Virus record (IMG/VR): IMGVR_UViG_3300046463_000715
Location: 1,868 to 65,867 of that record
Reading direction: 5' to 3' (one strand)
DNA length: 64,000 nt
Source: a virus
Taxonomy: Duplodnaviria; Caudoviricetes
Under the pieces are notes generated by a model. It ran no database searches, had not been told where the DNA came from, and saw only the letters and a program-made list of their open reading frames with translations. The translations under genes and the position numbers were made by a program. Numbering within the stretch: the first letter of the stretch is position 1; every line of letters begins with the position of its first letter. Below, in pieces: positions 6,594-42,083 of the stretch.

Positions 6594-7481
6594 TTAAGAG
6601 AATACCTGAACCTGGAGCACATTGGTAGCGCTAAGGCTGGAAATAGTGGGAGCTGCCCAGACGGTGTCGTAGTTCGTTCCAGAGTTCTTGGTCAGCACCT
6701 CATTGGTCGCACCACCGGCAGGGACCTCGTGCGTGTCTCTCCAGACCTCGTCGTAGTTCGTCCCAGAATTTTTGCTGAGAACCTGGGCAGTCGAGCCGCC
6801 GGTAGGAACCTCGTGGACATCCTGCCAAGCCTCGTCGTAATTTGTTCCAGAATTTTTCCTCAGTGCCTGACCGGTCGAGCCGCCGGTAGGAACCTCGTGG
6901 ACATCCCTCCAGCCCTCGTCGTAGTTCGTCCCGGAGTTCTTGCTGAGCACCTGAGCGGTGGAACCACCGGCAGGAACCTCGTGGACATCCCTCCAGCCCT
7001 CATCATAGTTCGTCCCAGAATTTTTGCTGAGCACCTGAGCGGTAGAACCGCCGGTGGGAACCTCGTGGACATCCTGCCAGCTGTCATCGAAATTAGTGGA
7101 AGAGTTCTTCCGCAATGCCTGACCGGTCGTGCCCCCAGTAGGTAGACCCGAGGCGGCTGCTTGCCAGCTTGCATCGTAGTCCGTTCCAGAATTTTTGGTC
7201 AAGACCTCGCCGGATGCTCCACCAATAGGTAGCTCGTGTAAGGTCTTCCAGCTGGCATCGCCATCTGTGGAAGAATTTTTCTCCAGCGCTTGGCCGGTCG
7301 TTCCGCCGGGAGGGAGACCCGAGCCGCCGGTAGTAGACAGAGAGCGGAGGAACCGTTCAATCTGCCGAACGGTCTGCTCGGCTTGACGGGTCCATAGAGA
7401 CACATTCTGCTGATACTCCGGAAGGCTAAGAGAGCCTAGCTTCGGAGTGGGCGGCAGAATAATATTTCCGAGCTCGCTCAT
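6594..7481 (-). CDS. tail fibre protein with PTGG..QVLxKNSGTNYD..W repeats
   Basis: about 8 copies of a 28-aa fibre repeat. Confidence 0.75.
   Translation of the reverse strand: MSELGNIILPPTPKLGSLSLPEYQQNVSLWTRQAEQTVRQIERFLRSLSTTGGSGLPPGGTTGQALEKNSSTDGDASWKTLHELPIGGASGEVLTKNSGTDYDASWQAAASGLPTGGTTGQALRKNSSTNFDDSWQDVHEVPTGGSTAQVLSKNSGTNYDEGWRDVHEVPAGGSTAQVLSKNSGTNYDEGWRDVHEVPTGGSTGQALRKNSGTNYDEAWQDVHEVPTGGSTAQVLSKNSGTNYDEVWRDTHEVPAGGATNEVLTKNSGTNYDTVWAAPTISSLSATNVLQVQVFS
6655..7320 (-). repeat. 84-bp imperfect coding tandem repeat, about 8 units
   Basis: GGAACCTCGTGGACATCC recurs at 84-bp spacing (6805, 6889, 6973, 7057). Confidence 0.9.
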
Positions 7482-33575: not shown

Positions 33576-34565
33576 TTATAGTTTCCTGGTAGACGCTCGG
33601 GCCATTCGCCAGAAGTTTCTGATAGAACTCTGATAGAACTGCGCGAACCCTACCACTGTGCCGTTGAGAATCTGTTTCGAAAACTCATCGAACAGCCGCT
33701 GCTTAATCCAGTCGGTCTCCTCGGCCAGGATGTCGGCCTGAATCTCTCTGCAGAGCGGGCCAATGTCCTTGTTCTCGTTCGTCAGCTTACCGGCTTCGCG
33801 CAGGTGCTGAATAGCCTTGAGCCAGCGTGCCTCGGTGCGCAAACAGTTCGTGAGCTTCTCGACAATCTCTTTCGCTCCGTCCTTGCCTGGGTTGCCAGGG
33901 ATAGTTGCGCGCTTCTCTTTGAAAGCAGGCGCGACGATTTTAGCAGTCATCGGGGCCTTCGCTAACCTGTGGTCGAGCGGTGTCGAGCTCTCGGATTCGG
34001 GGTGAACCTTCGAGTAGTTCTTCACCACCACACCCTCGACCTTTACACCACCGAGCTGAGACTCGCGGGAGTGATACTCGCCGAAGCTGTCGAAGTTCGT
34101 AGTCACCGGAAGGTAGCCCTGGTAAAAGACCTGGACCGCTTCGATGCCGAGCTCTGCTGCCCACATTTCACGCGCACCGCGACCGGCGTAGGAGCCATCC
34201 GGCAGTCGGACATCGAACAGCACGAGGTTGTTCTTCGGCACGCGAGAGTAGGCCAGGATGTTGTGCTTCGGCTTCGCGAGATACTCGCATTGAAAGATAA
34301 GGCCTTCGAGGCTGACGGTGTGACTGCTTCTGTAGAGCACCATCTGCACCGCGCCCACGGCGTTGCTGAAGGCCAGCTTAAACATGCCCGGGTCGTTGGG
34401 GTCAATCGGCTGGCCCTTGCTGCGGCACTCAATCTTGCCGTTGACGACACCGAAGCTGAATTGCGAGCCGTCGATTTTCTCCTCGACCTGGACGAGGTCT
34501 TCGAAGATGCAGCTGTTGTGGCGCTGACCTAGCGCGTAGATTTTCGGAATGCTTGGGAGGTTCAT
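33576..34565 (-). CDS. ATP-dependent RNA ligase (Rnl2-like)
   Basis: motif I EEKIDGSQF, III FQCEY, IIIa VLFDV, IV EGVVVK, V AKIV, helical C-domain. Confidence 0.85.
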   Translation of the reverse strand: MNLPSIPKIYALGQRHNSCIFEDLVQVEEKIDGSQFSFGVVNGKIECRSKGQPIDPNDPGMFKLAFSNAVGAVQMVLYRSSHTVSLEGLIFQCEYLAKPKHNILAYSRVPKNNLVLFDVRLPDGSYAGRGAREMWAAELGIEAVQVFYQGYLPVTTNFDSFGEYHSRESQLGGVKVEGVVVKNYSKVHPESESSTPLDHRLAKAPMTAKIVAPAFKEKRATIPGNPGKDGAKEIVEKLTNCLRTEARWLKAIQHLREAGKLTNENKDIGPLCREIQADILAEETDWIKQRLFDEFSKQILNGTVVGFAQFYQSSIRNFWRMARASTRKL

Positions 34566-35250: not shown

Positions 35251-36057
35251 TTACTGAGGGCTACCCAGGGGTTCCCTGGTGCTCTCCGCCGGGAGGTGCG
35301 CAACGTGGCCCGGGTCAATCGCAGGGTCGACCTCGCGCAGCAGTCCGCAGATGATTCGAGAGAATACCCGAGGGGCACTGTCTGCAGCGAGCTGTGCAGA
35401 AGACTCGCCGTCGATGTTCGGCATGAGCTTCGCGAAGTCCACACCCTCGACAAGTCTGGTGATGACATCGGCCAGAGAGTCGAGAGGGATGCGGTAACCC
35501 TTCTGGTAATACTTCAGCACGCGCAGCATCGAACCACCAGCGTCTTCGTTGCGAACTGGGTTGCGGTAGATGAGCCGCTTCCCAGCAACGTCGCAGTAGA
35601 AACGCTCGTCGCACACTGAGTGCCAGTCGGTGCCGGTCCAGCTGAACGCAGCGCAGCAGCAGGTGAAGTCGAAGCTGTCGGCCACGCTCCGGTCCGAGCC
35701 GAAGCTCCAGCGGTGGATGATTTGAATGGTTGGCTTGAAGGCCAGCAACGTGTAGGCGTTGTCGGTCGTCCAGATTCGGTTCAGCTTTTTGCCGTCTTCA
35801 GCGGTGAACTCGTCGCTGCTACTGTCGGGCAAGTCGAAGAGCTCGGCGTTGAGCGTCATCGCCAGGAGCAAAGCCGTCTGCTTGTCCGGGCAGAAGACGT
35901 CGATGTCGTTGATTGGGTCCCCGGCGACGATGGAGCGGAGGAAGCCCCCGCCGACAAAGATTTTGTTAGCCCACTCCGGGCGCTTCATTATTGTCAGAAG
36001 CTGCTTCGGGGTTCGGAGGAGTGCAAACTGCAGGTCGTGATACGTTAGACTGTTCAT
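35251..36057 (-). CDS. CCA-adding / poly(A) polymerase-type nucleotidyltransferase
   Basis: FVGGGFLRS...DIDVF, SFDFT, RVLKYYQKGY. Confidence 0.8.
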   Translation of the reverse strand: MNSLTYHDLQFALLRTPKQLLTIMKRPEWANKIFVGGGFLRSIVAGDPINDIDVFCPDKQTALLLAMTLNAELFDLPDSSSDEFTAEDGKKLNRIWTTDNAYTLLAFKPTIQIIHRWSFGSDRSVADSFDFTCCCAAFSWTGTDWHSVCDERFYCDVAGKRLIYRNPVRNEDAGGSMLRVLKYYQKGYRIPLDSLADVITRLVEGVDFAKLMPNIDGESSAQLAADSAPRVFSRIICGLLREVDPAIDPGHVAHLPAESTREPLGSPQ

Positions 36058-38183: not shown

Positions 38184-38713
38184 ACCGATACCTTCTCACA
38201 AGCCACAACACTTGTCAAATTTTTATTTACGCATACCGGAAGATTAATAGCACCAGGGCGTTGCAGCTTCGGGGTGACCTCGAAGGCATACCGCACACGG
38301 CGATTTAAATTGGTGCGCGCATCGCAGAGCCTGCCGTCGACAACTGCCATCGCGTGGCCCGAGACCGTAATAAGATACCGCTTGCCGTGGTCGCAGGCCC
38401 GCAGGAAGGTTTTGACGGTCATTCCGGCGCGCCTTCCGTTCCAGACCCCGCTCTCGTTGTAGAGCCACTTCGCCTCGACGACCGTGCCATAGGGCTTGAC
38501 CAGATTGTGACCGGCGATTTTCCAGGTCGAGAAGCCCTTCTTCCGCTTTCTGCCCATGCGTTTTAACAGGGCCTGGGCCTCGTCCCAGAGAATGTTCAGC
38601 GCGTAAGCGGTCGCTGTGACCGTGCAGCAGTTGCAATCGTCCAGGTCGGTGATTTTCTTCTGCCCGCTGCTGAGGCAGACGTGCAGCTGAGGGTCTGGGA
38701 AAAATACGCTCAT
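38180..38713 (-). CDS. putative Cys/His papain-like protein
   Basis: NCCTVTATAYAL...GHAMAVVDG; start inferred at MSVFF. Confidence 0.55.
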   Translation of the reverse strand: MSVFFPDPQLHVCLSSGQKKITDLDDCNCCTVTATAYALNILWDEAQALLKRMGRKRKKGFSTWKIAGHNLVKPYGTVVEAKWLYNESGVWNGRRAGMTVKTFLRACDHGKRYLITVSGHAMAVVDGRLCDARTNLNRRVRYAFEVTPKLQRPGAINLPVCVNKNLTSVVACEKVSV

Positions 38714-39072
38714 ATTCTGTTGTATTTCGAACGGTCCAGGGACTTGTGGTTGTCGTCGGCCCGATTGAACCAGACGGTCTTTACGAAGGCCTCTGAGCCC
38801 ACCGGCGCGCCCAGGACCATGACGAGGTCGAGCTCGTCGCTGTAGGGGAAGCGAGCCACACCCCAAACGGGTTTGCCGTCTTCCATTGTAACCTCGACGA
38901 TGTCGCCGACTTCAAACTCGGCTGAGCCGAACTGCTCGGCGCGTCCGTAGCGGTCAATGTCTGCCTCTTTTTGTGCATGGTATCCCCAGCGCAGGCTGAG
39001 CTTGCTGGCCCAGAGCTGAGCCGCCCCGGCGGGTAGCCCGAGCAGCTTGTGGTAACGTCCGTTTTTAATCAT
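38710..39072 (-). CDS. hypothetical protein
   Basis: VKTVWFNRADDNHKSLDRSKY tail; first gene of the leftward unit. Confidence 0.6.
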   Translation of the reverse strand: MIKNGRYHKLLGLPAGAAQLWASKLSLRWGYHAQKEADIDRYGRAEQFGSAEFEVGDIVEVTMEDGKPVWGVARFPYSDELDLVMVLGAPVGSEAFVKTVWFNRADDNHKSLDRSKYNRI

Positions 39073-39077
39073 GCCTC

Positions 39078-39146
39078 AGCTTACACCCTGGCGCTCCGCA
39101 CGCAAGCCGGAAAATCTACTAACCGTGGCCCCGGGGCTTCCCCTGG
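39078..39146 (-). promoter_or_regulatory. leftward promoter with the 31-bp element
   Basis: CCAGGGGAAGCCCCGGGGCCACGGTTAGTAG-N10-TTGCGT-N16-TAAGCT. Confidence 0.65.
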
Positions 39147-39179
39147 TAGAGGGTCCGTAATCGCTCTGTAAAATAAAGT

Positions 39180-39208
39180 TCGACAACCGGCTTGCCCGGG
39201 CCTATTGT
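39180..39208 (+). promoter_or_regulatory. rightward promoter of the ncRNA cluster
   Basis: AAATAAAG UP-like tract, TCGACA-N17-TATTGT. Confidence 0.6.
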
Positions 39209-39230
39209 GCTCACAGTTCTTTGAGAGTTT

Positions 39231-39421
39231 GAAGTCGGTTGAGGGCAAATCCTCTGCGGGTCAAGCCCGCTAGCATCCGGACCCGTCAGTCCGGAAGGGT
39301 GATGAGCTCAATGTAAATACGCTGCAATGCTGCTGTGGTTTGAGTCCCGCTTGACACCGGGGCAGAGGGCGAGAGCAGAGGGCAGCGGGGAAAAGCAGGG
39401 GATAAGCCCTCAGCCGATTTT
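39231..39421 (+). ncRNA. structured ~190-nt RNA of unknown family
   Basis: 16-bp plus 9-bp closing helices, GGAA-capped hairpin, potential GTCAAG/CTTGAC pseudoknot, flanking T-tracts. Confidence 0.7.
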
Positions 39422-39545
39422 TTCGCCTCAATCGAGGAACCGGTGCCTTGCCTTCAATGGTGACGCAACGAGACAGAAACGGGAGCCGAAAGCTCACGAA
39501 ATTTCTTGGCCGGTTTGCAGGTCGGTAACTGCGGGCGAATTTTAT

Positions 39546-39649
39546 GGTCCCGATAGGCTGAGGCCCGAAACCGCTACACTGGCGGCTGCGACCGAGGGAA
39601 CCGGAACAGGTAGTGCTGACCGGGAGAGGGTTTGAATCCCTCCGGGACT
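39546..39649 (+). ncRNA. tRNA-like RNA with an extended anticodon arm, no CCA
   Basis: GGTCCCG/CGGGACT acceptor, GAGGG-TTTGAAT-CCCTC T arm. Confidence 0.65.
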
Positions 39650-39658
39650 TTTGATTTT

Positions 39659-39793
39659 ATGGCACACAAACGAAAAGACACATTGGTCGCTCCGAAGCAG
39701 TGGTGGAAGCACCTGCGCGACTGGAAGCGACCGCAGAACAAGGCCGAGAGGCGGGCAGCGAAACTAAAATTTGACAAGCAAAACGACCTGTGA
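39659..39793 (+). CDS. small basic protein (44 aa, MAHKRK...WWKHLR...)
   Basis: TTTT-ATG start directly after the tRNA-like element. Confidence 0.55.
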   Translation: MAHKRKDTLVAPKQWWKHLRDWKRPQNKAERRAAKLKFDKQNDL

Positions 39794-39804
39794 GAAGTTC
39801 AGGC

Positions 39805-40011
39805 ATGGAAAATAAGTTTTATAGGCGGGTGGACAAGTTCGTCTACCACCGTCTCTGGCTCGTGAGGCCGGACACCGGCAGCACCTGGACCTGGGAATGG
39901 AACGGCGGCTTCTGGGAGCGCGCTACGCCCGACTTCGACCTGTTCAACGAGAAGGTCTCCAGGCCTCTGACGGTCGAGCGCTTGAAAATCGAAATCAAAC
40001 ACCGCTTATGA
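39805..40011 (+). CDS. hypothetical protein
   Basis: ATG 5 nt after TTGACA-N17-GAAGTT. Confidence 0.55.
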   Translation: MENKFYRRVDKFVYHRLWLVRPDTGSTWTWEWNGGFWERATPDFDLFNEKVSRPLTVERLKIEIKHRL

Positions 40012-41558: not shown

Positions 41559-41764
41559 ATCATATCCTATACCTGAACCAGAGCGCTGTGCGCAAACTGG
41601 TCAAAGAAAACGGCAAGCGGTGCTCGGGGGAATTCCTCCTGGCCCTGGACGACCTCGTCCGGAGCCGAGTAGTCGCCGCTGCCAAAATCCATAACGGCGG
41701 GCGGGTTACACTCGACGCATCTGTCCTGGGACACGTCTCGGGAGCAAGGCTGCACAATGCCTAA
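41555..41764 (+). CDS. small protein, possibly histone-fold-like
   Basis: SAVRKLVK..GKR.S.EF..ALD..V...A...G.VTL resembles prokaryotic histone folds. Confidence 0.45.
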   Translation: MNHILYLNQSAVRKLVKENGKRCSGEFLLALDDLVRSRVVAAAKIHNGGRVTLDASVLGHVSGARLHNA

Positions 41765-42083
41765 GCTAGTCAGAGCTCTAACGTTCCGGGCTGCGCTTGA
41801 CCAAAAGCTGGTCACGATTGCCCGGGCCTTTGGCTCTGCTGCTGAGGGGGCGCGGCAGTGTGGGGTAACTTATCGGTGCTTCGCTAGGTGGAAGACCGGT
41901 TTCCCCGCTGCCGCGCTGCTTCAGAAAATCGACGACGTCTACGCGATGGCTGTCGAGCTTCTGAACGACCCGGAGCTGATGAGGAAACGCCGAGCGACCT
42001 CGAAGAAAATCGTCAGCCTCGCCATAAAGCTGAGGCTGAGCCGGAAAACAGTTCAGCTGCTCCAGGAGCAGGGACTCTATTGA
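41757..42083 (+). CDS. HTH DNA-binding protein
   Basis: ARQCGVTYRCFARWKTG. Confidence 0.55.
   Translation: MPKLVRALTFRAALDQKLVTIARAFGSAAEGARQCGVTYRCFARWKTGFPAAALLQKIDDVYAMAVELLNDPELMRKRRATSKKIVSLAIKLRLSRKTVQLLQEQGLY

Follow-up and report, generated by a model that had tools for sequence, protein, structure and literature searches.

An element of about 190 nt at positions 39231–39421 (+) of a soil phage genome, termed E1, is predicted to fold so that its two ends pair into a terminal stalk of ~25 bp. The window, i.e. the whole stretch of DNA analysed here, covers 64 kb of an IMG/VR virus record 65.9 kb long, which CheckV rates as 100% complete. E1 is read tentatively, with a confidence somewhat short of even, as the opening module of an early leader that is accessory and non-coding; on this reading the stalk is the selected part and most probably releases a small RNA that evolves fast. 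What was computed directly is the promoter-like site, the stalk and its strand bias, the non-coding character of the element, the retention of a stalk where the letters differ, and which relatives have or lack the RNA cluster. Transcription, cleavage, release and any trans function of E1 are what we infer from the analysis. The labels E1, E2, E3, P1 and P2 were coined in this analysis.

Genome and locus

Phage genes in the record include terminase, an SU10-type portal, a family A DNA polymerase and a PD-(D/E)XK nuclease. A tRNA-Met is the sole tRNA in the window (default ARAGORN and Rfam scan). E1 sits in a 585-nt gap that separates two divergent operons, and the AT skew switches sign at this gap. 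The left-hand gene (38710–39072, −) is a member of phrog_24108, and on the right-hand side small open reading frames start at 39659.

The divergent left-hand operon encodes an RNA ligase (PF09414, positions 33576–34565, −) and a protein of the Gad2 family, which is nucleotidyltransferase-like (35251–36057, −; precomputed PF26128 assignment, Atlas score 0.97). This protein gave no match in local Pfam/NCBIfam copies or PDB sequences, and the Gad2 family is absent from the local Pfam copy. An initial guess that it is a CCA-adding enzyme was dropped in favour of the Gad2 assignment. Gad2 is described in a review as a nucleotidyltransferase counteracting Gabija (PMC13728456). Together, the Gad2-family protein and the RNA ligase mark the region as early and of anti-defence type. 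The neighbourhood of the cluster is thus early, accessory and anti-defence-type, and this is context rather than functional evidence.

A 33-nt stretch at 39697–39729, inside the small open reading frame at 39659–39793 (peptide KQWWKHLRDWK), is matched with 2–3 mismatches by other, more abundant contigs in all four of the soil runs described below, and the flanks of these contigs are unlike those of the window. This points to a short conserved basic-peptide motif common to other elements.

The features of the gap are as follows, L002 being a related phage locus described below.

39180–39208 (+): sigma-70-like early promoter TCGACA-N17-TATTGT (promoter-motif scan)
39215–39230 (+): conserved single-stranded 5′ leader AGTTCTTTGAGAGTTT (16 nt identical, window and L002)
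39231–39246 (+): P1, 5′ strand of the E1 stalk (pairing with 39406–39421)
39249–39257 (+): P2, 5′ strand (pairing with 39395–39403)
39258–39394 (+): variable interior of E1 (unalignable to L002)
39348–39364 (+): conserved motif CGCTTGAC(A)CCGGGGCA (L002 180–164, −)
39395–39403 (+): P2, 3′ strand (fold and pair probabilities)
39406–39421 (+): P1, 3′ strand, running into a T6 tract (sequence and fold)
39422–39539 (+): E2, second stem-closed module (fold; absent from L002)
39546–39650 (+): E3, tRNA-like module (L002 131–27, −; fold and conservation)

Promoter and leader

The promoter named in a reading of this DNA made from the letters alone (the sequence-only reading) is borne out: TCGACA-N17-TATTGT is the only promoter-like site on either strand between 38600 and 40400. 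E1 is the first element after this site, which agrees with its earlier placement at the head of the rightward transcript. At the matching place in L002, the sequence TTGCAT-N17-TAATCT was read by eye. The regulatory region at 39076–39230 shows 70% identity with L002 (z 14.7), and the leader AGTTCTTTGAGAGTTT lies between the −10 box and the stalk, where a role at the DNA level or at the RNA level is possible.

A pattern scan of viral contigs with the 16-nt leader yielded 96 matches, which were judged to be chance (inspection and blastn). The leader is also found at positions 7393–7408 (−) of locus L072, in the spacer of an unrelated phage tRNA array and ~30 nt upstream of a tRNA-Thr. Given the 96 matches in the collection, this copy is probably a chance match as well.

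The terminal stalk of E1

The two helices proposed in the sequence-only reading were recovered in full. P1 forms 16/16 pairs (probabilities 0.66–1.0) and P2 forms 9/9 (probabilities 0.83–1.0), with an AA/AA (2×2) loop between them. G·U pairs make up 3/16 of P1 and 1/9 of P2 (4/25 in total), and A·C oppositions number 0. The segment 39225–39430 folds at −101.8 kcal/mol (z −5.64), and 0/200 shuffles were equally stable. When 206-nt windows on both strands of the genome were scanned (3,200 folds), E1 in its exact frame had a GC-adjusted residual of about −4.65 sd, as compared with −4.38 sd for the best grid window (41721–41926).

A second very stable fold was observed at 41721–41966 (+) (−118.3 kcal/mol, z −4.94, 0/200 shuffles equally stable). 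It contains GCGCTTGACC and lies inside or overlaps an unannotated open reading frame at 41757–42083.

The antisense of E1 gives −79.2 kcal/mol (z −3.61), so that the sense strand is lower by 22.6 kcal/mol. When the stalks of both phages are pooled there are 6 G·U wobbles versus 0 A·C, a pattern that fits the + strand only. The earlier claim that the structure is an RNA on the + strand is upheld by both comparisons. The interior of E1 (39258–39394) folded alone gives a z of only −1.81, with 10/200 shuffles equally stable, and the fold signal therefore resides in the terminal stalk. From these energy calculations, the statistical signal is an RNA-type terminal stalk and not an intricate fold.

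The predicted stalks reach the length of at least ~20 bp of coaxial dsRNA that is expected of an RNase III substrate, i.e. 16 + 9 bp over the 2×2 loop in the window, and a predicted 14 + 2 + 3 + 7 bp with small loops in L002. No intrinsic terminator was called at P1 by the terminator scan, the loop being too large. The element had been described as bounded by T-tracts; a U6 tract does follow P1 in the window, but the 3′ tract is not kept in L002, where A-rich sequence is found instead.

The interior of E1

Two hairpins are predicted in the interior, at 39276–39295 (p ~0.99) and at 39344–39363, the latter with the loop CUUGACAC. Purine-rich direct repeats GCAGAGGGC are present at 39362–39370 and 39375–39383 and are not kept in L002. 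The only interior stretch common to both phages is the 17-nt motif CGCTTGAC(A)CCGGGGCA, also written CGCUUGAC(A)CCGGGGCA, which is positioned at the 3′ top of the stalk. Its CGCTTGAC part was considered as a repeated site in this genome and rejected, as near-matches of the 9-mer core in the window equal expectation (26 found, 26.1 expected) and show no enrichment.

The finer interior structure of the sequence-only reading fared less well than the stalk. The GNRA-capped hairpin it had drawn (39284–39304) is disfavoured, with pair probabilities of ~0.002 and an energy 3.9 kcal/mol worse than that of the competing hairpin at 39276–39295. For the suggested pseudoknot, GTCAAG (39260–65) and CTTGAC (39350–55) are indeed located where they had been placed, but GUCAAG is absent from L002 (by eye), which leaves the pseudoknot without a partner there. 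When GUCAAG:CUUGAC is forced as a nested helix the cost is 12.7 kcal/mol, the pseudoknot itself being outside this energy scoring. The suggestion of a ribozyme or an elaborate scaffold finds no support: the interior is not unusually stable, nor is it conserved, since 37/37 interior pairs of the E1 model fall in gaps in L002.

A kink-turn was defined by a C-stem, a 3-nt bulge, tandem G·A/A·G and an NC-stem, kept in both phages. L002 has a consensus-type candidate (289–272 and 176–162, −), GCCCCGG-AGU-GA-UAGCG with CGCU-U-GA-CCGGGGC, in which the conserved motif is on top of P2, with a 7-bp C-stem and a 4-bp NC-stem. The motif in the window shows no canonical equivalent, and looser candidates there also occur in 56–71 of 500 shuffles.

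The sequence GGTTTGAGTCCC in E1 (39337–39348) is 92% identical to the E3 T-loop sequence GGTTTGAATCCC (39629–39640). It is outside any T-arm-like stem and has no counterpart in the L002 E1.

E1 is non-coding, as had been stated earlier; no open reading frame over E1 is common to the window and L002. The sequence-only reading had recognised no RNA family, and the Rfam comparison agrees with this, giving no match to E1 of the window or of L002 at gathering thresholds or at E ≤ 10. With Rfam 15 the whole window yields only the tRNA-Met at gathering thresholds, and at E ≤ 10 the regions 38800–40000, 39209–39440 and L002 1–480 yield only sub-threshold chance matches. The GUCAGUCCGGAAGG stretch, which we presumed at one point to resemble SRP RNA, was dropped as an SRP-like element, having no Rfam SRP match and no L002 equivalent.

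Downstream modules E2 and E3

E2 ends in a terminator-like hairpin (39513–39536). In L002 this module is missing, and E1 is directly followed by E3.

E3 displays a 7-bp acceptor-like stem and a T-arm-like hairpin, GAGGG-UUUGAAU-CCCUC. Its conserved loops are a 7-nt YACACUR and a larger loop with CAGGUAGUGCUGA. Identity with the L002 module is 66% (z 8.1), and 6/23 consensus pairs are changed on both sides. A reading of E3 as a decoding tRNA was rejected. ARAGORN does not call it at default settings, and at relaxed thresholds calls it with inconsistent identities. There is no match to the Rfam tRNA model, and there is no canonical anticodon loop, YACACUR being without U33 (by eye). A search of 158 kb of loci with the E3 model gave no additional copy, and in four related viral records there was one match (E 0.119), apparently in coding sequence.

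Comparison with related phages

Relatives of the neighbouring protein are found in other assemblies at 65–98% identity (P0001–P0008; 65–86% for P0002–P0008). Alignment-based scans yielded 17 loci (8 metagenome, 8 viral and 1 genome). Among these, L002 alone carries the RNA cluster, and the E1 comparison is therefore based on one homologue. Scanning viral contigs with three neighbouring proteins, one at a time, gave no relatives, and blastn against INPHARED phages gave no match. Pattern scans of the viral contigs at the DNA level yielded 0 matches for the 22-nt hairpin, 18 for the motif and 5 for the E3 loop pattern, and these were judged to be chance (inspection/blastn). The identical sequence is present in low-depth contigs of four soil/rhizosphere DNA runs, and no RNA run was listed as containing it. 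These contigs show no variants in the element and no joints; being identical, they add no evidence on covariation or expression.

In L002 the neighbouring protein is 61% identical, and promoter, leader and a stalk-closed element of 175 nt occupy the same slot. The L002 element folds at −77.3 kcal/mol (z −4.0, 0/200 shuffles equally stable), and its interior alone gives z +1.09. Its antisense has a z of −4.41 as against −4.0 for the sense strand, which is still 6 kcal/mol lower. The L002 stalk has 2 G·U and 0 A·C and differs in sequence from the stalk of the window. Over E1 as a whole the two phages show 49% identity, which is at the level of chance (z 0.75; 66/300 shuffles score as high). E1 is thus 49% identical amid flanks that are 70% identical, which would mean either that the helix survived saturating divergence or that the element was replaced.

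A covariance model built from the MFE structure of the window E1 aligns the L002 element end to end, with a weak score of 10.4 bits. The match has an E-value of 0.33 in 86 kb (rank 3, behind short hairpins) and 0.017 in 4.5 kb. Because this match is weak, the homology of the L002 element rests on synteny and one motif. In the covariance-model alignment the stalk pairs compare as follows.

P1 (16 pairs): 10 changed on both sides, 5 unchanged, 0 changed on one side, 1 broken
P2 (9 pairs): 5 changed on both sides, 3 unchanged, 1 changed on one side, 0 broken

The counts of pairs changed on both sides are inflated, as the alignment was fitted to the structure and the sequences are otherwise unalignable; an alignment of E1 by MAFFT and RNAalifold was poor. 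P1 and P2 are kept in L002 with different letters; the interior pairs are not. From the two sequences, the comparison shows a helix persisting in the same slot, and it falls short of classical covariation.

Another relative, L003 (57% identity), has no RNA cluster (L003 3760–3920, −), although its promoter region and downstream genes are retained. The cluster is therefore accessory, and on this comparison of sequences it appears to behave as an insertion or deletion cassette. In more distant relatives the neighbouring gene is found in co-directional arrays, or the upstream gaps fold at chance level (L017, z −1.33; L004, z +0.64).

Proposed role of E1 and alternatives

In the tentatively preferred reading, the leader would be transcribed rightward from the early promoter at 39180–39208. 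The part under selection would be the stalk at the RNA level, ~25 bp formed by the module ends (P1 of 16 bp, the 2×2 loop, P2 of 9 bp). It would enclose a fast-evolving insert of ~120–140 nt, in which one 17-nt motif is kept next to the 3′ strand of the stalk. The stalk may be a double-stranded stem for processing or stability, at which a host enzyme of RNase III type cuts; a host enzyme would be needed, as no phage-encoded RNase III domain or dsRBD was found in the record. The tRNA-like E3 may be a second processing signal, of RNase P/Z type, and the stalk and E3 together would cut the leader into discrete small RNAs and fix the 5′ end of the early mRNA. Once freed, the E1 body might bind proteins in trans as an accessory RNA and so serve host takeover or anti-defence. 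A trans-acting role is weakened by an interior that is structured no more than expected by chance. A counterpoint to the processing stem is the U6 after the stalk of the window, with which the stalk could be no more than a transcription terminator.

Four other explanations were weighed. It is unlikely, though a serious alternative, that the element acts only in cis, the stalk being a 5′-UTR stability element, an RNase III control site, an attenuator or an antitermination element, with the interior as a spacer and no trans RNA. Such a leader would account for a stalk that alone is conserved and unusually stable, for the position between the promoter and the first genes of the early right operon, and for the U6 after the stalk of the window and the terminator-like hairpin that closes E2. 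It fits poorly with L003, where the same promoter region serves the same operon although the element is missing, and with the lack of the U-tract in L002, the conserved 17-nt interior motif and the modular cluster with its conserved tRNA-like unit. A repeat acting at the DNA level (operator or protein-binding site, origin or cruciform, invertible segment or MITE-like insertion) appears quite improbable. The location at a divergent switch where the AT skew changes sign, the inverted arms around a 137-bp spacer, the presence in some relatives and absence in another, and the two short direct repeats GCAGAGGGC would all suit it. As plain Watson–Crick DNA, however, the inverted repeat is 26 nt with only 81% complementarity and is ordinary among the inverted repeats of 16–30 nt in the window (n = 18), whereas with G·U allowed 25/25 positions pair and every wobble favours the + strand. 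No serine/tyrosine recombinase or reverse transcriptase is found in the genome (resolvase, integrase and reverse transcriptase: PF00239, PF00589 and PF00078, 0 matches each in the record). There is no second copy of E1 in the window and no clear target-site duplication at its flanks (by eye), and the direct repeats are not kept in L002. The wobble asymmetry, the ordinary Watson–Crick complementarity and the lack of recombinases thus disfavour the DNA-level repeat.

It is very unlikely that the cluster is a Y-RNA-like or tRNA-mimic RNP cassette, i.e. decoys that bind a host RNA-surveillance or defence protein. The 5′/3′ stems, the variable interiors and several RNAs per precursor are in its favour, as are the T-arm and 7-bp acceptor-like stem of E3; bacterial Y RNAs with such traits, and 22 phages carrying them, have been described (Chen et al. 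2014, PMC4201824). A Ro60 (TROVE) gene within ~4 kb is given there as a mark of Y RNAs. Against this, the whole phage record shows no match to the YrlA model (RF02553) at E ≤ 10, and none to TROVE/Ro60 (PF05731) at E ≤ 1 over the 65.9 kb of the phage genome. Nor do the 5′ regions of E1 and E3, in either the window or L002, show the motif GNCGAAN0-1G (by eye). A bolder proposal, which we regard as a long shot, is that the locus represents a new class of phage RNA cassette. The constant leader and the constant tRNA-like module would frame exchangeable stalk-closed RNAs. Independent of Ro but otherwise resembling Y RNAs, these would serve as decoys for host proteins of RNA surveillance or of tRNA-targeting defence, and the early region around them also has an anti-defence gene of Gad2 type. 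Least of all is it to be expected that the structure arose by chance or is neutral and functionless. The interior does fold like shuffles and the sequence is not conserved, but in neither phage do any of the 200 shuffles reach the observed energy, the element tops the genome scan, and a stalk is present in the same slot of a relative whose flanks have diverged to 70% identity.

If E1 is expressed and processed as in the preferred reading, it would be a phage small RNA that evolves fast and lends itself to study. If the stalk is only a processing or stability stem, it would be an ordinary feature of early phage transcripts. At this locus a stalk-closed RNA changes in sequence but keeps its stalk; the promoter, the leader and the tRNA-like unit on either side of it stay constant, and genes of anti-defence type lie nearby. 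The accessory functions that phages carry out through RNA have been mapped far less than those carried out by proteins; phage tRNAs that defeat PARIS, Septu or retron defences are known examples (reviewed in PMC13728456).

Comparison with known systems

The stalk of E1 has parallels in RNA processing. RNase III processing stalks include the hairpins of T7 early mRNA, the lambda N-leader and the stalks of rRNA precursors. E1 resembles them in having a predicted ~25 bp of imperfect dsRNA with an internal loop in an early phage transcript and, as in rRNA precursors, the stalk is formed by sequences flanking an insert. It differs in that the insert is 120–140 nt and the phage is without an RNase III of its own.

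The antitermination RNAs of HK022 (put) are ~70 nt in length, with two stem-loops, and lie immediately downstream of an early promoter. E1 is likewise a structured RNA directly 3′ of an early phage promoter; unlike put, it is a 190-nt stalk-closed element and is dispensable in the relative L003. The stable RNAs C and D of phage T4 are small structured RNAs in a tRNA cluster, with no function assigned. Likened by description only, the present cluster also has small structured phage RNAs beside units of tRNA type, but E3 is not a decoding tRNA.

E3 is similar to mascRNA/MALAT1 (RF01684) in that an acceptor-like stem and a T-arm lie directly downstream of another non-coding RNA. The family is eukaryotic, however, and the match is sub-threshold (18.2 bits, E 1.1) and far below the gathering score of 42.5, so that the resemblance is one of shape only.

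In the Y RNAs YrlA/Yrn1, the 5′ and 3′ ends form a stem around an interior that varies, a tRNA-like domain is present, and one precursor yields several RNAs (Chen et al. 2014, PMC4201824). The E1–E3 cluster likewise combines an end-formed stem and a variable interior with a tRNA-like module next to it that has a T-arm; it differs from YrlA in that the closing stem of E3 extends the acceptor stem instead of replacing the anticodon stem.
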